A stretch of 32,000 nt of DNA. Origin: Promethearchaeota archaeon (GTDB lineage Archaea > Asgardarchaeota > Hermodarchaeia > Hermodarchaeales > Hermodarchaeaceae). Location: contig JBHLMI010000015.1 of assembly GCA_048938295.1 (NCBI GenBank), forward strand, positions 27,025-59,024. Reading direction: 5' to 3'. Numbering within the stretch: the first letter of the stretch is position 1; every line of letters starts with the position of its first letter. The notes under the pieces are model-generated. The model ran no database searches. It worked only from the letters and a program-made list of their open reading frames with translations, and was not told the origin of the DNA. This document shows, one piece after another, positions 1-32,000 of the stretch. Made by a program: the position numbers and the translations under genes.

Positions 1-1312
1 GTATAGTTATATTCGGTGTTAGAATCGCGCTACCATCTAAGGGAAAAAGAAATTCCATGAAGGCTCGAATAATAGAAACATTGTACGAAGCTCCAACGGC
101 ATTTTCTATAACCATTGTAAACTGACCGCTGGATGAAACATAAGAATCAACATCTCCCAATCCGATATCAAACGCCCCATCATCTACCCCCGCGACCGTT
201 CCAGGATGTGCATCGATTACCTTTACGATTCCTTGACCTGAGGAAAGCGTTTCATCAATCTCAGTAATCAGAACTCCTTCACCCCCGGGGCCTATAATGG
301 GAAGCGAAGTGTCATAACCAATCTTTTTCCGAACTTCGATTAGGAAATAATGTGTTGAAGTTACATTGATTCGAATCAGATGTATGCCCGTTGGAGGGAG
401 TTCAAGAGGATCAATCACTGCAGTGAGATCGGAGCTTACCTCAACTGTGTTGCTGGCATTAACCCAACCCAATTGCGATTTACTCCACCCCATCATATGT
501 GAGGGTTGATCGCCTAGACCCATGGGGCCATTCCAAGATCCTGCCCCCATCAATCCCCAATGGCCGACAAACTGTTCTCCTTGGTAATCGACATCATATA
601 AGTCAGGTAATCCTAAGTCGTGTCCAAACTCATGGGCTAGAACACCTACGAATGACGGTTCACCAGGAAGGCTTTCCTCAGGGCTTACCGATGCACGTTG
701 GATTGAAATCCCATCAGCCCAAATGGTAAAACCCCACCATTCACTGGACCAATAATCCTGCCAATCATGGCTTAGTTCTTGGCCTTGACCTGCATGAATA
801 ATGGTCACGCCATCGTAATTTGAAAAATCAACATCCGGATCTGCGAGAGCAATCGCTTCAGAAACTATATCAAACTTGGGATCGCTTGGAAACGATGTAC
901 CATCTACATAGTAGGCTCGATTATGTGAAAGTGTGTACCATTGGGTCGCATCACCCCCAACTGAAACTAGCCCATATGAAACCTCATCGATATAATCATT
1001 GAGTTCGGCTAAAGCATTTGTCTCCACTTCAGCTGAAGTAAACGTATTGCCTTTATCGGGAAATTCAACCAAGATGGCAACCAAGTTCTTAGTACCCGTA
1101 ACCTGGCGAGAGGAACGGTAGACTTCCAGTGGAGGAGGTCCATCAAGACCAATGCGTGAAGACATCGGCATCGAGGTAGCCGAGGAAGCTTGGGTTGTCA
1201 AAGGAGCAGAAAATATACTCATTGCAAGTGGTGCAATCAGAGAAAAGAGGAGAATTGTCATTAGAGTAACTGCGGGAATAATGGCCAGCTTGCGACTTAC
1301 ATGATAACTCAT
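1..1312 (-). CDS. Secreted M6-family (immune inhibitor A-like) zinc metalloprotease, 3'-partial (runs off window start)
   Basis: Hand-translated, stop-free frame from ATG at 1312 (GAGGT RBS upstream) to position 1; absent from ORF track. Hydrophobic N-terminal signal (LAIIPAVTLMTILLFSLIAPLA), LVAILVEFPD, IIHAGQGQE, zinc motif HEFGHDLGLPDLYD, Met-turn WGLMGAGSWNG, YFLIEVR, GVLITEIDE. Confidence 0.9.
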   Translation of the reverse strand, partial: MSYHVSRKLAIIPAVTLMTILLFSLIAPLAMSIFSAPLTTQASSATSMPMSSRIGLDGPPPLEVYRSSRQVTGTKNLVAILVEFPDKGNTFTSAEVETNALAELNDYIDEVSYGLVSVGGDATQWYTLSHNRAYYVDGTSFPSDPKFDIVSEAIALADPDVDFSNYDGVTIIHAGQGQELSHDWQDYWSSEWWGFTIWADGISIQRASVSPEESLPGEPSFVGVLAHEFGHDLGLPDLYDVDYQGEQFVGHWGLMGAGSWNGPMGLGDQPSHMMGWSKSQLGWVNASNTVEVSSDLTAVIDPLELPPTGIHLIRINVTSTHYFLIEVRKKIGYDTSLPIIGPGGEGVLITEIDETLSSGQGIVKVIDAHPGTVAGVDDGAFDIGLGDVDSYVSSSGQFTMVIENAVGASYNVSIIRAFMEFLFPLDGSAILTPNITI

Positions 1313-1531
1313 CTGGTATACCTCAATAGTCCGTCTGCTCCACGTTCTGTGAACTTCCTTGGTCTTACGCCCAATGTCGTTCACGCTGGTCTATGAAATC
1401 TGTTGAAAGCCCAGAGATAAACTTTCGGTTCTGTCTACTCATAAGATAGTGAAGTTGGTCTCATCGCAATCTCGGAGTTGTCTCTGCTAGTGGTAAGGCA
1501 GGTTGGTCTCGTCTTCCCATCGCTAGCATCC

Positions 1532-2095
1532 TTATGGAGGACCGCTTCGACTTTCATGTGATGCTTTGATCTTTATGGCTAAGGTGGAAAATGCTTCTTT
1601 AACCTCTTGTCCTGTCTTTGCTGACGTTTCCTTGTATTGAAACAGACCAAGATCCCTCGCGATTTTCTCCCCTTGTTCCGGAGTAATTTTGCGGTTCTTA
1701 TCGAGGTCAGCTTTGTTTCCCAGGAGAATCAACAGGGGTTCAGGGCCCACAGCATCACGAAATGCCTGAACCCATCGTGGAATTGTTTCCAAGGTTTGGG
1801 GGCGAGTTAAATCAAAAACCACAATCCCTCCAGAAGCACCTTGGCAATATCGGGTGCGAAGATCTCGAAATATGTCCTGTCCCGCTAGATCCCAGATAAG
1901 GAGCTTAAACAGATACTTGTCGATCTTAGCATCATAGGTGCTGATATCAATCCCAAGAGTTCGGTGATAATCACGTTGAAACTTGCCTGTCACATACTTA
2001 TTGACAAGGCTAGTCTTCCCAACAGCTGCTTCACCGAGGGTTACTAGCTTGTAGACAGAATCAAACCGTTTTTCTTCATCATAAGTTCTGCTCAC
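1532..2095 (-). CDS. Rab-like small GTPase (Ras superfamily)
   Basis: G1 GEAAVGKTS, G2 Thr in HRTLGID, G3 WDLAGQ, G4 NKAD, G5 ETSAK. GTG start with GGAGG RBS. No C-terminal Cys. Confidence 0.95.
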   Translation of the reverse strand: MSRTYDEEKRFDSVYKLVTLGEAAVGKTSLVNKYVTGKFQRDYHRTLGIDISTYDAKIDKYLFKLLIWDLAGQDIFRDLRTRYCQGASGGIVVFDLTRPQTLETIPRWVQAFRDAVGPEPLLILLGNKADLDKNRKITPEQGEKIARDLGLFQYKETSAKTGQEVKEAFSTLAIKIKASHESRSGPP

Positions 2096-2175
2096 TTCTC
2101 AACCTCCATATCGATGACCGGAAATCCAGCCTAATAATGGACAAGTTCCTCTTTAACTGTTGTCGAATCCCTCTC

Positions 2176-2183
2176 TTATATAA
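2176..2183 (-). promoter_or_regulatory. Putative TATA box for the Rab-like gene
   Basis: TTTATATA-like element on the minus strand about 80 nt upstream of the GTG start; by eye only. Confidence 0.35.
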
Positions 2184-2196
2184 ATTCTGACATAAT

Positions 2197-2580
2197 CTAC
2201 AATTCCAGAATTTGCTTCAGCTTTTGTTCATAGGTCTCGAACAAGTCTAATAGCTGAATGCCTAGCTCAGTTAGGGCAGTGCCACCTTTTCCATCGCTGT
2301 GTCCACGCTGTTTTTTCACAATCGGTGCACCAATCCGTTCTTCCACTTTTTGAAGGTACCCCCACGCAAACCGATAGGAAGGTGATTCCATCTCTCCCAA
2401 GGCATCCTTGGGCAGTTTCTTCAAGGCTTGACTGATGGAACCTTTCTCAGCAATCCCTCTCAACAGCAAAGCCCCACCTCTGCCAAGAATCAGCTCTCCA
2501 TTCAGTTCAAACCACAGTTTCACCTTCACCTCTAATGAATCAAGGATTGGATCTTTTTCACTCGACATTACAGCCACCAT
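2197..2580 (-). CDS. Stand-alone ModE-type winged-helix transcriptional regulator
   Basis: LGRGGALLLRGIAEKGSISQA...SYRFAWGYLQKVEERIGAPIV...GG..GGTALTELG matches the ModE N-terminal wHTH pattern; no molybdate-binding domains. Confidence 0.8.
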   Translation of the reverse strand: MVAVMSSEKDPILDSLEVKVKLWFELNGELILGRGGALLLRGIAEKGSISQALKKLPKDALGEMESPSYRFAWGYLQKVEERIGAPIVKKQRGHSDGKGGTALTELGIQLLDLFETYEQKLKQILEL

Positions 2581-2734
2581 CTAGTATGTAAGGAATGCAG
2601 TTAGTTACCTCTTGTGTTTTAGTACTACCAGGTGTTTGATGCAATACTTCAAATACCCACTGGCTTGTAATATGCTCTTGCCCAGAACCTATTCTAAGTG
2701 ACTTTAAACAAAGGCAGTAATTCATAGGGTTATC

Positions 2735-3490
2735 ATGGTGTCGTCACCGCAGCTTGCTCGAATAGTCGTCAATTCCCTTAAAGCCATTCTCGGCGAAGAG
2801 TACACCATCCAGCATTTCGAACGACTTCCCAGTCGCCGTAATGAAGTCTATAAAATCCTTGGTTCCCTCCCTTCTCAACTCACACCAATACCCCTAATTG
2901 CGAAATACTATAAACAGACTGGCATCGCACATGAAGCCTCCATACTCCAAGAAGCCCATCAAAATAATCTCCACGTTCCTACTGTCATTGGCACAACTGC
3001 CAATGTCCTTGTCCTTGAATATATCAATGCTCCCAACCTTTGCGACCTCATCACAATCAACCCAGACAGGCTTCTGGGTCAGCTGCTCGCTAAATGGCTT
3101 GCAAGTTTCCACACCGTTTTTAGTCGCGGTGCTGGCCAGGTTCTTGCCAAAGGTGACACACGAATACGCAACTTCCTTGTTTTCTACGACCATCTTGTGG
3201 GCGTTGACTTTGAAGAAAGCCATATTGGATCCTACTACGAAGATCTAGCTATCGCCTGCGCGTCAATCCTTGACACTGCTCCCCTTTTCACTGAACCCAA
3301 ATTTCAGTTGTGTACAGTGTTGCTAGATGATTACTCTGCAATCCGCCAAATCACTAATCCGGAGGAATTCAAGGCAACAATACGTGTCCAGATGATTCAG
3401 GTTCTCAAAGAGACCGCCCTTCGTCGGGGAAATCCTCCTGAGTTACTTTACCATATCTCGCGATTTGAAAGAGGTGCCATTTTATTTTAG
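2735..3490 (+). CDS. Protein-kinase-like phosphotransferase (APH/choline kinase/RIO-like fold)
   Basis: beta3 Lys (LIAKYY), alphaC Glu (HEASIL), VLVLEYI, catalytic loop KGDTRIRN, Mg-binding VDFE. Confidence 0.75.
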   Translation: MVSSPQLARIVVNSLKAILGEEYTIQHFERLPSRRNEVYKILGSLPSQLTPIPLIAKYYKQTGIAHEASILQEAHQNNLHVPTVIGTTANVLVLEYINAPNLCDLITINPDRLLGQLLAKWLASFHTVFSRGAGQVLAKGDTRIRNFLVFYDHLVGVDFEESHIGSYYEDLAIACASILDTAPLFTEPKFQLCTVLLDDYSAIRQITNPEEFKATIRVQMIQVLKETALRRGNPPELLYHISRFERGAILF

Positions 3491-3677
3491 CTTTTTACCT
3501 AGATTGAAGTGTGGTTTACTCGTTTTTTAGACAATTTCCGAGTATTATAAAAAAATGTGGAAGCTGTCGATTATTTATTTCCTAAGAAGCCAAAAGCCTT
3601 TAAGTCGGCTTCAAGATGACGGAGACAACTCCACATTGGAGTTGTAACAATAAAAACTTTAGGAGGCATTGTGAGTT

Positions 3678-4025
3678 ATGGCAGATGAAGGAACAGCTCG
3701 GACTCTTGTCACGATTGGCGCCTGGCTACAGCTTATCTTCTGGTTTATCGGTATCGGTGGAATTGCCTTTACGGCATTTCTATTCTTACCCGTCTTAATG
3801 GACCCGTTGTTCTTGATGGTTTTCCTACTGGCTGCAGCGTTTTACATTTTGATAACGATCTTCGCGATCATCTTCTTCATATTATGGTTCCGTTGGCGTC
3901 ATGACCCTGGTGCACACAAGACTGGTCTCATCGTCACCGGTGTCCTTGGGCTCTTTTTGGCTGGATTCCTCCCAGCTCTTCTCGTCCTCATTGGTGGCAT
4001 AATCGCCCCCTCTGAGTCCGCCTAA
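3678..4025 (+). CDS. Small multi-pass membrane protein, unknown function
   Basis: 115 aa with about 3-4 hydrophobic segments; GGAGG upstream; followed by a terminator-like hairpin. Confidence 0.75.
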   Translation: MADEGTARTLVTIGAWLQLIFWFIGIGGIAFTAFLFLPVLMDPLFLMVFLLAAAFYILITIFAIIFFILWFRWRHDPGAHKTGLIVTGVLGLFLAGFLPALLVLIGGIIAPSESA

Positions 4026-4074
4026 AACGACCGAGCCTCTTGGCTTGTAGGTCGTTCCTCTTTTTCTTTTTTTT
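4026..4074 (+). terminator. Hairpin plus oligo(T) terminator
   Basis: AACGACC (4026-4032) pairs with GGTCGTT (4050-4056), with an inner GAGCC/GGCTT stem, followed by a T-rich tract directly after the stop codon. Confidence 0.6.
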
Positions 4075-4220
4075 ACCTCCGTGAGCGGAGCTAAGAAAAG
4101 GGCTCAATCAACTTTACACACTATAGCGAATCGGATTCAGTAGTATGCCACAACCTTTATGGTCTATGAGTCGTGGAGTGATGGCAGACAACGATACCTC
4201 AGCCAAGTAGGAGGCCCTTT

Positions 4221-5255
4221 TTGTTGGGAGTTAAATTAGCGCCGCTCATCATCCCAGAGGTTTTAGCATTAGAAGATTTACGTGGTCGATCATTTGCGGT
4301 AGATGCTGCTAATCAATTGCATCAGTTCCTTGCCCTCATTCGTACTCCTGACGGGGTTCCACTAAAGGATCGTAAAGGGCGAGTCACCTCCCATCTGGTG
4401 GGGCTCCTTTATCGCACAACGCGACTGATTACTGAATATAACCTGAAACTCATATTTGTCTTCGATGGAAAACCCCCTGATCTCAAATCTAATGAAATTA
4501 CAAAACGGCGTCAACAACGCAAACGAGCTGAACAGGAATACAAGGAAGCGGTTGCAAAAGGTGATATGAAAACAGCTTGGTCAAAGGCTGTAGGAACAGG
4601 TCGCCTTACGCAGGAGATGGCTCAAGAGGCGCAGCAAGTATTGACTTACCTTGGAATCCCCTTTGTACAAGCTCCCGGCGAAGGTGAAGCGCAAGCCGCT
4701 TATATGGTTCAACGTGGTGAAGTGTGGGCTACAGCCAGCCGGGATTTCGATACCCTACTTTTTGGGTCGCCACGATTACTCCGCTACTTAACACTCACAG
4801 GTCGGAAACGCCTACCCAGTAAAGGTACAAGCGTTCCGCTCCAACCCGAGCTCATTGACCTCCACAAGGTACTTGCTGAAAATGGCATCAACCGTGAGCA
4901 GCTCGTTGATATCGCGCTACTCATTGGTACCGATTTCAACAAAGGTGTTCCTCAGGTTGGTCCGAAAACAGCATTAAAACTAATCAAGGAAAACAAAAGT
5001 CTTGAAAACCTGCCTAGTATGATCCTTGAACAACTCCCCCCCAATTATCATAAAATCCGTCGCCTCTTTTTAGACCACCCAATTACGGATGAATATGATA
5101 TAACTCCCAAACCTGTTAATCGCGAAGGTCTCATTGCCTATCTCTCCAATGAACGGGGGTTCTCTGAAACAAGACTGAATAATGTGATAGATCGGCTCCT
5201 AAAAGCCAAGGACGGGCAACGACAACAGAGCCTGAATAGCTGGTCTAAAAGATAG
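4221..5255 (+). CDS. fen: Flap endonuclease 1 (FEN-1)
   Basis: MGV-type N-terminus (start may be TTG at 4224), AVDA..LHQFL, VFDGKPP, APGEGEAQAA, SRDFDTLLFG, GTDFN and C-terminal PCNA-interacting PIP box QQSLNSW. Confidence 0.97.
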   Translation: MLGVKLAPLIIPEVLALEDLRGRSFAVDAANQLHQFLALIRTPDGVPLKDRKGRVTSHLVGLLYRTTRLITEYNLKLIFVFDGKPPDLKSNEITKRRQQRKRAEQEYKEAVAKGDMKTAWSKAVGTGRLTQEMAQEAQQVLTYLGIPFVQAPGEGEAQAAYMVQRGEVWATASRDFDTLLFGSPRLLRYLTLTGRKRLPSKGTSVPLQPELIDLHKVLAENGINREQLVDIALLIGTDFNKGVPQVGPKTALKLIKENKSLENLPSMILEQLPPNYHKIRRLFLDHPITDEYDITPKPVNREGLIAYLSNERGFSETRLNNVIDRLLKAKDGQRQQSLNSWSKR

Positions 5256-5261
5256 CAATTC

Positions 5262-6962
5262 TTACGTAAGCAGAATGCTGGACCAAAATGAGGCAACATC
5301 TGCGCGAGTTTCATAATTCATAAGGCCATAATTTGCTAGCTGTCGTGTTCCTCGTTGCACATTCTCCGCACTGAAAGGGCGCCGAATCCAATTAACTCGT
5401 TCAGCAGTCTCATCCAGTTGTTGCCGAAAATGAGGATTCGATCGAATTTCGGTTCGCATAAGTTGAATCAATTGCTCGCCAAAGACCTCATCAGAATAAC
5501 TCAATTGTAGATGAGCACCTATTTCCTTTCGGAGCGATAAGGGAGGAATTACCCCATACTGTCCTTCGCCTTGCCCAATCTTCACTGTGAAAACAGGAAC
5601 AACAATTTGCATTAAGGGAAGATATCCTTGGAGCTTGTCAGCTGGTGCACTAATCGCTTCGAATCGCCGGTGCTCTTGTTCCACTTTATTTTTCAATTGT
5701 TTAATCGTTTCTTTTAATTCCGCGTGGAGCTTTATAATCGCTTCACGAATCATATCGAGCTCTGAGAGCTTGGGTCCCTTATTTGGCTCCGCTGGTGGTG
5801 GTTGGGAATATACAAGAGAACCAGTGGGAAAAGGCGGGGGGACCTGATCAGATGAATCGCCGTTCCTGACTTGGTCACGGCTCCATGTAAAACGAGTACG
5901 GGCATCACGCAGCTCTTCTGTTTTTTCATCCAGGTCTGTTAGTGCCTGCTGAATCGATATCTGGAAGACATTTGCGGTGTTCTCTAATTCTAATAACCGC
6001 GTCTTCACATTGGCAATATGCCATTCCACTTCTGTTGGTTTTGCCTTGATGGAACTCACAAGGCGACGGCACTGTTCCGTGGATAACCCAAGGGTGTTGG
6101 CTAGACGGCTAACAATTTGTGCTAATTCAGTTGAGATGCGCTGTTTTTCTTTTTCCAGTTCTGCTATAGGTTCATCAGCAAAAAAGGAGGTCTGAGGTTC
6201 ACTTTCAATCGGAGTAGCCTCCCAGCGTAAGGAAGCCCCACGGGATAGTCGATCACGCCGGGCATCTAACAAACGGATATTCTCTTCCACAAATTCATCA
6301 ACCAAACTCTCAGCCTGGCTTAACTGAGCAAGATTCGCGTCGAGTTGGGCTCGTTCATTCCTAAACAGAATCCCAACATCATGAATTTCTTTTGTAGATA
6401 ATCGAGATGGTAAAACCTCTTCTTCACCCGGTGGAGGAATAGCGGAATCAACCAGTACACGGAGAGTATCTACCATCGTTGGTAACATAGCATTCCGAAT
6501 GACAACCAGTTCCGACGGTGGCTTTTCGAAACCTTCAATGAATTCACCCAATAATTTGGGAACTAGCTCGATTTTCTCAATATTACGTAGTTCGGCACGC
6601 ATTTGAACCAGCGAAGGAATCGAGGAATGACGCACCGAAATTGTTGGTTCGCCAACACCGCTGATAATCAGACTCCGACCCGGTAAAGCATGAACAAGAT
6701 AGAAGGGCAAATAGACTTTCGAAAAATAGGAGAACGACACGGGTTCACGGATCTGTTTTTGCAAAAACAAAAGAGCCGTGGCTAGGTCAGCCTCAGGGGT
6801 TGATGAAAAACCGTCTTTCATAGAGTCAGGAGGACCTTGGATGAATGCTGCCACCTTTGTTATTGCCACGTAACCACCTAACCCGCGAAAATGATGTTCA
6901 CGCCGCTCACTTGAACCAATGAAGGGGCAAAGTATAATCTTTTTGGCTAAGGTCTTCCCCAT
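5262..6962 (-). CDS. Uncharacterised coiled-coil protein with globular N- and C-terminal regions
   Basis: 566-aa ORF with long heptad-rich middle and a Pro-rich linker. Start uncertain (6962 or ATG at 6821). No catalytic motif recognised. Confidence 0.7.
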   Translation of the reverse strand: MGKTLAKKIILCPFIGSSERREHHFRGLGGYVAITKVAAFIQGPPDSMKDGFSSTPEADLATALLFLQKQIREPVSFSYFSKVYLPFYLVHALPGRSLIISGVGEPTISVRHSSIPSLVQMRAELRNIEKIELVPKLLGEFIEGFEKPPSELVVIRNAMLPTMVDTLRVLVDSAIPPPGEEEVLPSRLSTKEIHDVGILFRNERAQLDANLAQLSQAESLVDEFVEENIRLLDARRDRLSRGASLRWEATPIESEPQTSFFADEPIAELEKEKQRISTELAQIVSRLANTLGLSTEQCRRLVSSIKAKPTEVEWHIANVKTRLLELENTANVFQISIQQALTDLDEKTEELRDARTRFTWSRDQVRNGDSSDQVPPPFPTGSLVYSQPPPAEPNKGPKLSELDMIREAIIKLHAELKETIKQLKNKVEQEHRRFEAISAPADKLQGYLPLMQIVVPVFTVKIGQGEGQYGVIPPLSLRKEIGAHLQLSYSDEVFGEQLIQLMRTEIRSNPHFRQQLDETAERVNWIRRPFSAENVQRGTRQLANYGLMNYETRADVASFWSSILLT

Positions 6963-6997
6963 GGGTAGATTAACAAGTCTTTCGGAAATGAACCTCC

Positions 6998-8377
6998 ATG
7001 ACCCAACACATCATCGTAATCGGATGTGGCACCGCAGGTGCCGCTGCAACCCTCCAAGCCCGCAAAACCAGTCGCGATGCCACCATCACCATCATACAGG
7101 ATGAATCTCTTCCTGAATACAGTCGCTGTGGACTACCCTATACAGTCAATCGTGTAATCCCTCAAATCGAGGATATTATCATTCATCCTGAATCTTTCTA
7201 TACAGGTAATTTGGTACAGGCTGACTTGCGGCTAAACACCGAGGTCTTAGCAGTTAACCCAAAGAAGAAAACTGTGACTATCAAAACTTCTGAAGGGGAT
7301 ACCGACTCGCTTTCATATGATTCCTTAATCCTTGCAACAGGTGCACGACCCAGCACACCCCCTGTTGATGGTTTGGATGCATCACACGTTTACCGTCTTC
7401 ACACCTTCGAGGATGCAAAGCGACTCCAATCTGCGACTAAGAAAGGGAAAACAGCAGCGATCATCGGTGCAGGGCTCGTGGGGCTCGAAACAGCAGAAGC
7501 CCTTGACACCCTAGGCCTTAAGATCACAGTAATCGAATTCTTACCCCAAGTACTACCCGCCATGATTGATGACGACATGGGGGTCCTCATCCAACAACAA
7601 ATGGAAGCCAAAGGACTCACGGTCAAAATAAGCACTGCAGCAAAACAAGTCACTAAAACCCATGTAGTTGTGGCTGATCGTGAAACGAGCACTGAAGAAA
7701 AAATCCCTGCAGATATTGTTGTGGTAGCCACAGGCGTGCGTGCAAACACAGACTTAGTGAAAGATGCAGGGATTACACTTGGTGAACGGGGAGGGATTCG
7801 CATTGATAAACGGATGGCAACCAATTACCCGGATATCTATGCAGCTGGGGATTGCGCAGAACATGACGATTTGGTGACTGGCCAGAGTATTGTCTCAGGA
7901 CTTGGAAGCATTGCCCTGCGACAAGGCGAAGTTGCTGGTATCAACGCGGCAGGGGGATCTGCAGAATTACCAGGAGTAGTATTAGCTCGAACGACACACC
8001 TTTTTGGCCTCGAAATCGCAGGAGTAGGACCTACGCGTGTCGCAGCAGAAAAAGCCAATCTTCCAGTTCTTGCCGGGAAATTTAAGGGAAGTCGCACAGC
8101 CGAATATTATCCCAGCAAAGGGGATGTTACAGTAAAGCTGCTGGCAAATAAGGACACAGGAGTCTTACTTGGCGGACAAGTCATTGGTCCGTGTGCCCAC
8201 CAACGAGTAAATGTGCTAAGTGCTGCTATATCAGCAAAAATGACAGTCCGTGAGGTGGCTGACCTGGAAACCTGTTATGCTCCTCCCGTAGCCCCAATCC
8301 GTGAACCATTTACCCTAGCAGCTCAAATCCTCGCGTTGCGCTATGAACGCATGAAACAAAAGGAGCGAAAAGGTTAG
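6998..8377 (+). CDS. FAD-dependent pyridine nucleotide-disulfide oxidoreductase (CoA-disulfide reductase / NADH oxidase family)
   Basis: GCGTAG FAD loop, single redox Cys in YSRCGLPY, LILATGA, NAD-binding GAGLVGLE, IYAAGDC, C-terminal dimerisation domain with CYAPP. Confidence 0.9.
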   Translation: MTQHIIVIGCGTAGAAATLQARKTSRDATITIIQDESLPEYSRCGLPYTVNRVIPQIEDIIIHPESFYTGNLVQADLRLNTEVLAVNPKKKTVTIKTSEGDTDSLSYDSLILATGARPSTPPVDGLDASHVYRLHTFEDAKRLQSATKKGKTAAIIGAGLVGLETAEALDTLGLKITVIEFLPQVLPAMIDDDMGVLIQQQMEAKGLTVKISTAAKQVTKTHVVVADRETSTEEKIPADIVVVATGVRANTDLVKDAGITLGERGGIRIDKRMATNYPDIYAAGDCAEHDDLVTGQSIVSGLGSIALRQGEVAGINAAGGSAELPGVVLARTTHLFGLEIAGVGPTRVAAEKANLPVLAGKFKGSRTAEYYPSKGDVTVKLLANKDTGVLLGGQVIGPCAHQRVNVLSAAISAKMTVREVADLETCYAPPVAPIREPFTLAAQILALRYERMKQKERKG

Positions 8378-29484: not shown

Positions 29485-30099
29485 TTGTTTGACAGGAACC
29501 GGCCTCCATATGCTCTTGCTAAACGGGTCAAGGTACACAGGGCCAGAACTCTCTCAGATCAACTCTCCAGCCTCTCAACAGATGAACTTCGGCTTCTCCG
29601 TAAATACACTAAAGATCCCAAAGAGCCGGGCATCCAACAGATTCTTGCCAAACCCGTCCTGGCAGAATATACGATACAAGAGCTCCGCGTCGCCCTAGCC
29701 ATGCTAAGCGGTGCTGCCAGCGCTCCTGCACCCGACCTATTGTCTACTCCCGGAACTGTCCAAATGGGACATCCTTTCCACGACCACATCCGTTCAAGAA
29801 CAAACCTTAGTCTAATCGCAAACCAGAATATCCCTCTCCCCTCACGATACTCCCCAGAAATCGCCAACAAACTCCAAGCAATGTCCGACGAGGAACTCCT
29901 TCACCTTGCCCAACATGTCGGCAACCCCAGCGATCCCCGAAGCCGTTTTCTGATTATCCGCTACCATCTCTACAAATATCGTCCCGAAGACATTGCGTCT
30001 ACAATGGCAACCCTATTACGGTTACGACGGAAGGAACGTCGCCCCGAAAGGAAACGTCGCCCTGATTTTCAATCCGTTTCCACTCCCCGTTTCCACTAG
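29485..30099 (+). CDS. Hypothetical protein, paralogue 2 (two ~56-aa helical repeats, basic C-terminal tail)
   Basis: TTG start with GAGGAGG RBS; EYTIQELRVALAML vs EYSIQELRLALAAL in paralogue 1. Confidence 0.75.
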   Translation: MFDRNRPPYALAKRVKVHRARTLSDQLSSLSTDELRLLRKYTKDPKEPGIQQILAKPVLAEYTIQELRVALAMLSGAASAPAPDLLSTPGTVQMGHPFHDHIRSRTNLSLIANQNIPLPSRYSPEIANKLQAMSDEELLHLAQHVGNPSDPRSRFLIIRYHLYKYRPEDIASTMATLLRLRRKERRPERKRRPDFQSVSTPRFH

Positions 30100-30178
30100 C
30101 CTTCTAATTGGAACTAGGAAGCACTTTTAACTCTCTAGTTAATGAGAGCCATACACGACACCCTTGAGGTGACATACC

Positions 30179-31441
30179 GTGGAATCCAACGGATGTGATG
30201 AACCCAATCCCTATGATGTTGCTAAAAAGCAACTCGAAATCGTAGCCAAAAAAATGAAGCTTAATCCCGATATCCTTGAACTCCTCAAACATCCCAAACG
30301 CGCCCTTGTCGTTAGCCTCCCAGTCAGAATGGACGATGGAAGAATAAAGGTGTTCACTGGCATGCGTGTCCAACACTGGGATGCCTTCGGGCCTTTCAAA
30401 GGCGGCATCCGCTATCATCCCAAAGTCTGTTTAGACGAAGTAACAGCGTTATCGATATGGATGTCAATTAAGACAGCAGTTGTAGGCCTCCCCTATGGTG
30501 GAGCGAAAGGCGGTATTATTTGTAATCCCAAGGAAATGAGTGTAAACGAGTTAGAACATCTGACTCGACGATTCACTCACGAAATCATGGAAATTATCGG
30601 TCCATATCGCGATGTGCCAGCTCCTGATGTTTATACTGGCGAACGCGAGATGGCCTGGCTTTATGATACATACTCGGAAGCCCAAGGGTATGCGGTGCCT
30701 GAAGTTGTTACAGGGAAACCGATCTCAATTGGTGGGAGCTTAGGGCGTCGTGAAGCTACTAGCCGTGGAACTGTAATCACGGTTCGCGAGGCTGCTAAAC
30801 GGTTGAACTTTGACCTGAAAGGCGCTTCTGTTGCGATTCAAGGGTTTGGGAATGTAGGCTCTTATGCTGCGGTATTGATTGCTGAATATGGTTCCAAAGT
30901 CGTGGCAGTCAGCGACTCACGCGGAGGAATCTATAACGCCGATGGGTTTGATCCAAAGAAGGTAATGGAGCATAAGAAAAAGACAGGCTCTGTCGTTGGC
31001 TTTCCAGGGACAAAGCAGATCTCAAATTCAGAACTCCTTGAACTCGATGTAGATATTCTAATTCCTGCTGCATTGGAAAATCAGATTCTGGCTGAAAATG
31101 CTCCTCGCATTAAAGCCAAAATCATCGGTGAAGGCGCTAACGGCCCCACTACGCCGGCAGCTGATGAGATTCTCTATAAGAAAGGTGCCTTTGTGGTACC
31201 TGATATTCTTGCGAATGCTGGTGGCGTCACAGTTAGCTACATGGAGTGGGTTCAAAATCTGACCCGTGAATCTTGGACTGAAGACGAAGTGAATGGTAAA
31301 CTTGAACAACGAATGGTCCAAGCTTTCGATGAAGTATACCGGGTGCATCAGAAAGAAAAAGTTCACATGCGGACTGCAGCTTATATCGTAGCACTAACCA
31401 GAATCGCTGAAGCCGTGGAAGCCAGGGGTATTTTCCCTTAA
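30179..31441 (+). CDS. gdhA: Glutamate dehydrogenase (Glu/Leu/Phe/Val dehydrogenase family)
   Basis: GPFKGGIRYHP, PYGGAKGG, DVPAPDV, VTGKP, QGFGNVG, EGANGP, NAGGVTVSYMEW. GTG start with GAGGTGA. Confidence 0.96.
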   Translation: MESNGCDEPNPYDVAKKQLEIVAKKMKLNPDILELLKHPKRALVVSLPVRMDDGRIKVFTGMRVQHWDAFGPFKGGIRYHPKVCLDEVTALSIWMSIKTAVVGLPYGGAKGGIICNPKEMSVNELEHLTRRFTHEIMEIIGPYRDVPAPDVYTGEREMAWLYDTYSEAQGYAVPEVVTGKPISIGGSLGRREATSRGTVITVREAAKRLNFDLKGASVAIQGFGNVGSYAAVLIAEYGSKVVAVSDSRGGIYNADGFDPKKVMEHKKKTGSVVGFPGTKQISNSELLELDVDILIPAALENQILAENAPRIKAKIIGEGANGPTTPAADEILYKKGAFVVPDILANAGGVTVSYMEWVQNLTRESWTEDEVNGKLEQRMVQAFDEVYRVHQKEKVHMRTAAYIVALTRIAEAVEARGIFP

Positions 31442-31566
31442 TCGCTGGGTTATTACCCCCCTTCTCCATAATATAGAAAAGAACCAACAGGTATTTCCCT
31501 CCCCAAAAGGTCTAATTTGATAAATCTGAATTTCTAAGAGTACATGAAAGGCTGGTGGACTTCTAG

Positions 31567-32000
31567 GTGCAATACACAGCATTTTCCAATGTGATTTTTT
31601 GGCTGATTATGGTTCTTATCTTCACTGGCATCTGCGTTGGAATCGGTCGGGACTGTGAAAGAATCAGGCGTGATCGAAGCCGCGATCGAAGCCAAAGTCG
31701 CTCCCGTCCTAGCTATACTTATCGACCACCACATCGAATAAAAGATCAAACACCTCGCACTCAATATAGTGAAATCCAACTAGCAATGTGCCCCGAATGT
31801 GAAGCCACCATCCTGGCTGAAGCTACAGTTTGCCCCCACTGTGGTGCTCCCCAACCTGTTTGTATGGTATGTCAAAACTCCATCGTTCCCCTTGACTCCA
31901 CCCTCAGTTGCCCCCGGTGTCGAGGGCAGGCCCATCGCATCCACTTTCTAGAATACTTGAAAGTCAAAGGCAAATGTCCAGAATGCAACGCCGATCTCGA
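31567..32000 (+). CDS. Membrane-anchored zinc-ribbon + RING-like protein, 3'-partial
   Basis: Hand-translated, absent from ORF track: MQYTAFSNVIFWLIMVLIFTGICVGIG (TM) - RDCERIRRDRSRDRSQSRSRPSY - CPEC..CPHC - CMVC-x12-CPRC-x4-H-x2-H-x10-CPEC. GTG 31567 with GGTGG upstream. Confidence 0.85.
   Translation, partial: MQYTAFSNVIFWLIMVLIFTGICVGIGRDCERIRRDRSRDRSQSRSRPSYTYRPPHRIKDQTPRTQYSEIQLAMCPECEATILAEATVCPHCGAPQPVCMVCQNSIVPLDSTLSCPRCRGQAHRIHFLEYLKVKGKCPECNADL
31669..31692 (+). repeat. 12-nt tandem duplication encoding RDRS-RDRS
   Basis: CGTGATCGAAGC CGCGATCGAAGC, one mismatch. Confidence 0.8.

Follow-up and report, generated by a model that had tools for sequence, protein, structure and literature searches.

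At the 3′ end of a 32,000-nucleotide stretch of a Promethearchaeota archaeon genome (assembly GCA_048938295.1, contig JBHLMI010000015.1, positions 27,025 to 59,024; called the window here) begins a gene for a predicted membrane protein with a zinc ribbon and two RING modules. The first 144 of its 222 codons are found on the plus strand at 31567..31998, with a GTG start and an open 3′ end. We lean, if only slightly, towards the reading that this candidate is a membrane-tethered RING ubiquitin ligase (E3) which works with the ubiquitin cascade of its genome. We infer its recruitment of the ubiquitin-conjugating enzyme (E2), its ligase activity, its substrates and their downstream fate as follows. 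A single N-terminal helix would anchor the protein in the cell membrane, and a flexible basic linker would hold the unit of zinc ribbon and first RING as well as the second RING in the cytoplasm. There the candidate could bring ubiquitin-charged E2 to the membrane and promote the transfer of ubiquitin onto membrane or membrane-proximal proteins. [quoted passage not shown] The tandem RINGs may represent a built-in RING dimer.

The ligand spacing C-x2-C-x12-C-x2-C-x4-H-x2-H-x10-C-x2-C is present twice in the 222-residue protein. In module 1 (residues 99-140; 31861..31986, plus strand) it reads C99-x2-C102-x12-C115-x2-C118-x4-H123-x2-H126-x10-C137-x2-C140, that is, the C4-H2-C2 spacing of a cross-brace. 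None of the ligands varies, whether among the 39 orthologues compared for module 1 or the 22 for module 2, and the pattern is far above chance. Ligand 6 is a histidine in 39/39 orthologues and in 130/130 modules of the superfamily described below; the PHD-type C4HC3 signature is not what these modules display. At the positions known for E2 docking the orthogroup has Val or Ile in loop 1 (39/39; Val101 in the candidate), Tyr or Phe in the helix (38/39; Tyr130, at the Trp position) and Pro in loop 2 (39/39; Pro138). The modules presumably bind zinc.

The predicted structure agrees with this assignment. The full-length AlphaFold2 (AF2) model, built with the family alignment, has a mean predicted local distance difference test (pLDDT) value of 85.8 and shows a transmembrane helix and, behind a disordered linker, two modules of the beta-beta-alpha type. 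In the core of the first RING the strands comprise residues 112-114 and 121-123 and the helix residues 124-134; module 2 has equivalent elements. We compared the model by VIA-align, a fold search independent of Foldseek, with 48,161 PDB representatives. The top 50 matches are all RING or U-box domains, among them the Prp19 U-box (Z 9.1, root-mean-square deviation 1.4, 53 residues aligned), RNF4 (Z 8.3) and RING1B (Z 8.0), and further neighbours are CHIP, TRAF6, Pex, Hrd1, Slx1 and Nse1. Thus the fold, as modelled, is that of a RING/U-box domain. The 50 best VIA matches include neither a PHD nor a LIM fold, the outcome named beforehand as speaking against a ligase; absence from such a list by itself excludes no fold. 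With Foldseek one E3 containing a PHD finger, PHF7, appears at rank 45. The best sequence match of the family profile in the PDB is the RING-H2 domain of RNF24 (E 1e-4). A feature search of the ESM Atlas gave a best score of 0.86, under the 0.9 level, and such hits are leads at most.

The same genome encodes the partners which a ligase would need. On another contig (C53; locus L014, G000:C53:1-14000) an ESCRT-ubiquitin supercluster occupies about positions 1-7822. It comprises the C-terminal part of Vps4 (1-804), EAP30 (Vps22/36; 1563-2297, minus strand), an open reading frame (ORF) of 97 residues listed between EAP30 and Vps28, Vps28 (2624-3280, minus), UEV-Vps23 (3296-4114, minus), an ORF of 178 residues (4135-4671, minus), a RING protein of 108 residues termed P0040 (4797-5123, plus), ubiquitin (5127-5372, plus), an E2 of the UQ_con family with intact HPN...C catalytic motif (5570-6031, plus), the ubiquitin-activating enzyme (E1; 6007-7071, plus) and a Yip1 protein with an N-terminal zinc ribbon (7064-7822, minus). 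Elsewhere in the genome are two Snf7 genes and the gene of a JAB protease. The first-pass annotation, made from the letters of the window, had guessed at an Asgard ubiquitin system, and had taken a genome lacking E2 as grounds for giving up the ligase. The named relatives are indeed Promethearchaeota (the NCBI name for Asgard) and Hodarchaeota, and ubiquitin, E1, E2, ESCRT-I, -II and -III, Vps4 and JAB could all be located.

The operon RING P0040 links the candidate to this cluster. It has exactly the ligand spacing of the candidate, so that the C4HC3-like pattern with histidine as ligand 6 noticed at the outset turns out to be identical to that of the operon RING. P0040 aligns with both candidate modules ungapped at 35-37% identity (E 3e-10 and 5e-9) and reaches the Pfam zf-RING_2 model with 27.6 bits, above the cut-off of 27.3. 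Judged by this alignment, the candidate RINGs are paralogues of the operon RING. An orthologue of the operon RING from a Helarchaeial genome ubiquitylates UEV-Vps23 in vitro together with its E1 and E2 (bioRxiv 10.1101/2023.07.25.550441). Likewise the srfp protein of Caldiarchaeum is an active E3, and its activity depends on three residues, Ile in loop 1, Trp in the helix and the Arg that follows the last Cys (PMC5654768). Asgard RING E3s are counted among the eukaryotic signature proteins (10.64898/2026.10.28.762692).

The membrane anchor comprises residues 9-27 (31591..31647, plus strand), as indicated by hydropathy (Kyte-Doolittle mean 2.63), charge bias and an AF2 helix spanning residues 2-44. 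The candidate has no Lys or Arg before this segment and 7-9 after it (9 within the next 20 residues), and nearly all orthologues have 0-1 before and 4-9 after. The positive-inside rule relates such a bias to transmembrane topology. We therefore predict an N-out/C-in (type-III) topology, which would place the zinc domains on the cytoplasmic side. The Arg/Ser-rich linker that follows (residues 28-71; 31648..31779, plus) is poorly conserved in the alignment of the orthologues (A1), and its residues 45-62 have pLDDT values below 50. Next comes the zinc ribbon CPEC-x10-CPHC (residues 72-95; 31780..31851, plus) with the ligands C75, C78, C89 and C92, which are invariant in the 39 orthologues; Pfam Zn_Ribbon_1 scores 26.1 bits against a cut-off of 25. 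When the 85 residues of zinc ribbon and RING module 1 are folded separately, AF2 returns a pLDDT of 92.9 and a predicted template modelling score of 0.76, and in this model the ribbon packs on the RING as one compact body.

The gene had been overlooked among the listed ORFs, which cover this region only by two short minus-strand frames (31534..31779 and 31780..31944). We find no support for these. The plus-strand frame runs for 144 residues without a stop before the window end, and all 12 ligands are invariant across the 39 homologues of its product (E 1e-116 to 1e-25); the listed frames are, as suspected, antisense shadows. The window end is also the end of its contig (C5), and the last 77 nucleotides (window 31924-32000) match the end of contig C41 letter for letter (L003:1705-1781). 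This exact overlap falls inside the RING1/RING2 repeat, and C41 also carries an internal copy of it which is 79% identical. Read inward, C41 encodes a second copy of the Cys/His module followed by a stop codon. The remaining 78 codons thus lie outside the window, on the minus strand of C41 (L003:1470-1703), and the joined ORF encodes 222 residues with a second tandem RING module. The joining agrees with P0001, a protein of 222 residues from an independent 23-kb contig, which differs from the joined protein at a single position (V181A). The break between C5 and C41 was probably caused by the internal RING repeat. The first-pass annotation had seen the single N-terminal transmembrane segment, the basic linker, the zinc ribbon, the RING spacing and the aromatic residue at the Trp position, all of which are present; it had missed the truncation at the contig end and the second RING, which came to light when the contig was extended as it had proposed.

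Among two-module orthologues, copies of module 1 are 73% identical among themselves and copies of module 2 are 69% identical, compared with 61.5% between module 1 and module 2. The RING duplication is therefore older than the divergence of these orthologues. One-module forms of 146-185 residues are present among the orthologues as well. In some genomes of the same genus, two one-module copies about 2 kb apart replace the single two-module gene (G098:C56:1040-1498 and 3656-4132; G099:C78:201-659 and 2804-3274), and several matches there contain in-frame stops in a six-frame read. Public records name the orthologues "hypothetical" or "zinc-ribbon domain-containing".

We then asked how far the combination of zinc ribbon and RING extends. 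A profile of this unit was run over 1.84 billion proteins and gave 1,507 representative clusters, 287 of them at E ≤ 1e-10. The unit is almost always C-terminal, in proteins of 81-2,103 residues. A crude hydropathy scan of 152 of these proteins (147 top representatives and 5 from the family or genome of the candidate) found at least one transmembrane segment in 100. At E ≤ 1e-4, 33 of 76 superfamily proteins match Prok-RING_1 and 27 of 76 match zf-RING_2 (best 2.8e-12 and 5.7e-12, respectively). Fusions to HEAT, LRR, TPR and solute-binding domains occur, a composition that resembles substrate-recognising E3s.

Five zinc ribbon/RING proteins of this superfamily are encoded in the genome, including the candidate and the soluble operon RING. 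The others are two smaller paralogues of the same order (transmembrane segment, ribbon, RING), with 168 and 174 residues (the latter at L025:1480-2004 = G000:C50, minus strand), and a receptor-like paralogue of 565 residues with signal peptide, large repeat ectodomain, one transmembrane segment, ribbon and RING (L027:1462-3159 = G000:C25, minus). In the 174-residue paralogue ligand 6 is Glu in place of His (H-x2-E) and the helix Trp is kept; this may change the first of its zinc sites.

Full-length orthologues of the candidate are limited to its own genus. Of 400 genomes of the phylum, 286 contain the module as such and 296 a UQ_con E2. Module and E2 are present in, and missing from, the same families; among these 400 genomes, every family with the module also has the E2. 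We note that this co-occurrence is partly trivial, since the superfamily includes the operon RING itself, and that related genomes are non-independent observations.

For a prediction of the E2 interaction, the E2 of the same genome (47-row alignment) was folded together with the zinc ribbon and RING module 1 (39-row alignment). The docking score is 0.70, and the best of three controls reached 0.17. This mark is attained in 58 of 80 solved complexes as against 2 of 110 mismatched pairs. The runs share at least 88% of their contacts, with a partner pLDDT of at least 86. The docking model supports RING-E2 binding, short of demonstrating it, with the reservation that RING-E2 complexes have been solved and the pass may partly reflect likeness to them. 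The RING makes its contacts through loop 1 and through the central helix, the face with which RINGs normally dock. The E2 contributes residues 23-24, 38-42, 106, 110 and 147-153, and its tail 146-153 is set against RING loop 1. Asgard E2s carry, past the UBC core, a short C-terminal extension (residues 146-153) in which Trp147 is invariant.

Several observations weigh against a ligase. First, 112 of 130 superfamily modules (86%) have Trp at the helix position at which the candidate has Tyr. Second, the linchpin position is occupied by Asn141 and Asn211 and not by Arg or Lys. In the orthogroup this position is mostly Gln or Asn, and Arg or Lys is found in only 11 of 39 orthologues for the first RING and 1 of 22 for the second, compared with 68 of 130 superfamily modules (52%). 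With Tyr for Trp and the Arg/Lys linchpin mostly lost, the orthogroup is a derived, possibly attenuated RING variant. Third, the candidate stays below the Pfam cut-offs for zf-RING_2 (15.3-17.5 bits, cut-off 27.3) and Prok-RING_1 (17.5-20.7 bits, cut-off 29.1). Fourth, its gene is unlinked to any ubiquitin gene, being located on another contig after a glutamate dehydrogenase gene. Fifth, all nine public runs which carry the gene are DNA metagenomes, mostly from sediment, and no RNA run is among them. Finally, the docked E2 surface is unusual. According to the alignment with Ubc4, the contacts lie on the backside of the beta-sheet (S24 corresponds to S22 of yeast Ubc4) and on the Asgard-specific C-terminal tail, and they miss helix 1, loop 4 and loop 7 of the E2, the elements bound by canonical RINGs (PMC5654768). 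The co-folding with E2 suggested in the first-pass annotation passes its controls, but on a non-canonical surface. Its overall reading, a prokaryotic membrane-tethered E3-like protein, is supported as to fold, anchor and presence of an E2; catalysis is still inferential, given the absent linchpin, the Tyr for Trp and the non-canonical contact.

The same observations can be read differently. When the whole unit of 82-84 residues is used as query, its best PDB matches are the tails of IFT144/WDR19 and of GATOR2/SEA subunits (Foldseek E 8.7e-6 to 1e-3, TM-score 0.5-0.65, 22-26% identity). A shape search of the ESM Atlas returns IFT144/GATOR2-type tails again (TM-score 0.64-0.69), and the family profile matches WDR19 across both fingers with a borderline E of 6e-4. 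The main role of the IFT-A and GATOR2 zinc tails is that of structural junctions. Because the best whole-length matches are to such junctions, a non-catalytic role is a serious rival: ribbon and RING units could be zinc scaffolds which assemble membrane complexes, possibly among the membrane RING paralogues. The absence of the Trp and, mostly, of the Arg/Lys linchpin from the orthogroup fits this role too. Nevertheless we hold it to be rather unlikely. The eukaryotic tails have lost ligands (WDR19 is without ligands 2, 5 and 6 in the profile alignment), whereas the candidate family keeps all of them together with the three docking positions. Moreover, the module is confined to families that have an E2 and is clearly paralogous to the operon E3. 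The Pfam finger model Zf_2nd_IFT121 (PF23145) adds little, as in the genome itself its sole match is the 565-residue paralogue, with 22.9 bits below the cut-off of 25, and six control genomes also match.

If the docking geometry is taken at face value, the RING might hold the E2 by its backside and C-terminal tail and thereby concentrate or regulate it at the membrane. Passing the controls with precisely these contacts, the invariance of Trp147 and the missing linchpin all favour such an E2 anchor or modulator. On the other hand, the proposal is derived from one in-silico interface whose geometry may be wrong, and the RING side of that interface is the one used in canonical docking. We consider it quite improbable that the protein is such an anchor, which might for example serve another E3 such as the operon RING or control chain building. 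We keep the membrane-tethered ligase as the preferred reading.

The gene neighbourhood is relevant to a further alternative. Directly upstream of the candidate a glutamate dehydrogenase of 420 residues is encoded (30179..31441, plus strand; Pfam label ELFV_dehydrog), and in each of the six orthologous loci examined in other assemblies (L015-L020) a glutamate dehydrogenase gene on the same strand likewise precedes the RING gene. It belongs to an upstream synteny block (window 29485-31441 and loci L015-L020) with the order M20 peptidase, MoCF_biosynth, an ORF of 70 residues, AsnC/Lrp, Maf, Endo_dU, two proteins of about 190 and 205 residues and glutamate dehydrogenase. The convergent gene downstream varies; it is Glu_synthase-like in many loci and PALP in L019 and L020. 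Where the Glu_synthase-like gene follows, the RING gene is flanked by genes of glutamate metabolism. Between the dehydrogenase and the RING gene, the alignment of five orthologous intergenic regions (A4) shows a conserved AT-rich element (TCTAAnTTGATAAAnCTGAAT...; 31511..31537, plus strand). It is located about 30-55 nucleotides upstream of the start codon and is probably the gene's own archaeal promoter of the TATA/BRE (B recognition element) type. A GGTG-type stretch at about 31554-31558 suggests a ribosome-binding site. We set aside a functional coupling to glutamate dehydrogenase, since close relatives share the synteny of the whole block and a conserved promoter-like element lies between the two genes. 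The idea of a zinc-finger membrane protein outside the ubiquitin system, for example one that binds nucleic acids or a regulator and is tied to its glutamate-metabolism neighbours, could appeal to the conserved adjacency, the frequent Glu_synthase-like gene downstream, the Arg-rich linker and the noncommittal public annotation, but is very improbable, because close relatives keep the entire 10 kb of the upstream block in synteny, so that the adjacency weighs little, the downstream gene varies, the intergenic element points to a separate promoter, and fold and homology match RING E3s.

A defining trait of eukaryotic endomembranes is that ESCRT sorts membrane proteins in a ubiquitin-dependent manner. 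Asgard archaea are known to possess ubiquitin, E1 and E2 as well as a small RING in soluble form and an ESCRT-I that binds ubiquitin. The missing piece is whatever brings ubiquitylation to the membrane, and a conserved family of membrane-anchored RING proteins, to which the same genome adds receptor-like and polytopic relatives, would fill this gap. As the presence of the module tracks the E2 across the phylum, the membrane RING family is a direct and testable candidate. In the literature searched we found no description of membrane-anchored Asgard RING ligases, which cannot prove them unpublished. If the candidate is a ligase as proposed, this would suggest that membrane-tethered E3 ligases are older than eukaryotes. 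Its Tyr for Trp, its lack of an Arg linchpin, its tandem RINGs and the predicted non-canonical E2 contact would also make it a test of how minimal or how different an early RING-E2 pairing could be.

The closest known systems include the archaeal srfp (small RING finger) proteins, the RING E3s of the Ub-E2-E1 operons in Aigarchaeota and Asgard archaea (PMC5654768; bioRxiv 10.1101/2023.07.25.550441). The eight-ligand C4-H2-C2 spacing is identical, the KxKGxCPxC tail is shared, and the genome and set of lineages are those of the candidate, the copy of this genome being P0040. However, srfp proteins are soluble, have about 80-110 residues, adjoin the genes for ubiquitin, E2 and E1 and carry the helix Trp and the Arg linchpin. 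The candidate is membrane-anchored by prediction, has a zinc ribbon and two RINGs, has Tyr and Asn at these positions and is unlinked to ubiquitin genes. From its sequence we therefore class it as a paralogue of srfp and not as an srfp. Close to it in Pfam are zf-RING_2 (PF13639, RING-H2) and Prok-RING_1 (PF14446), below whose cut-offs it stays; its ligands 3 and 4 are spaced C-x2-C and its ligands 4 and 5 are separated by x4, where the RING-H2 pattern is C-x-H-x2-H.

With the tails of IFT-A (IFT144/WDR19, IFT121/WDR35) and GATOR2/SEA (MIOS, WDR24, WDR59) the candidate shares the C-terminal order of a zinc ribbon with a RING-like finger directly behind it. These tails are placed behind beta-propeller and solenoid bodies and their ligands are degenerate, in contrast to the intact ligands of the candidate. 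In the genomes scanned, the compact unit of zinc ribbon and RING forms the C-terminus of hundreds of Asgard proteins, for the most part membrane proteins. It is conceivable, if a long shot, that this unit is the prokaryotic ancestor of the tails of eukaryotic membrane machines of the protocoatomer type, namely IFT-A (IFT144/IFT121) and GATOR2/SEA (MIOS/WDR24/WDR59). Those tails would then have started out in the archaeal host, as ubiquitin-ligase modules associated with its membrane. The transmembrane RING E3s with which eukaryotes mark membrane proteins, that is, the PA-TM-RING proteins such as RNF13 and GRAIL, Hrd1/synoviolin, the MARCH proteins with their RING-CH domain and the peroxisomal Pex2/10/12, follow the same logic of a membrane anchor with a cytosolic RING, and the structural neighbours of the candidate include the RINGs of Hrd1 and Pex (Z 6.4-7.6). 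However, they show no orthology to the candidate, have another transmembrane architecture and are without zinc ribbon or tandem RING. We thus regard the likeness as an analogy of design and not as membership in these families.

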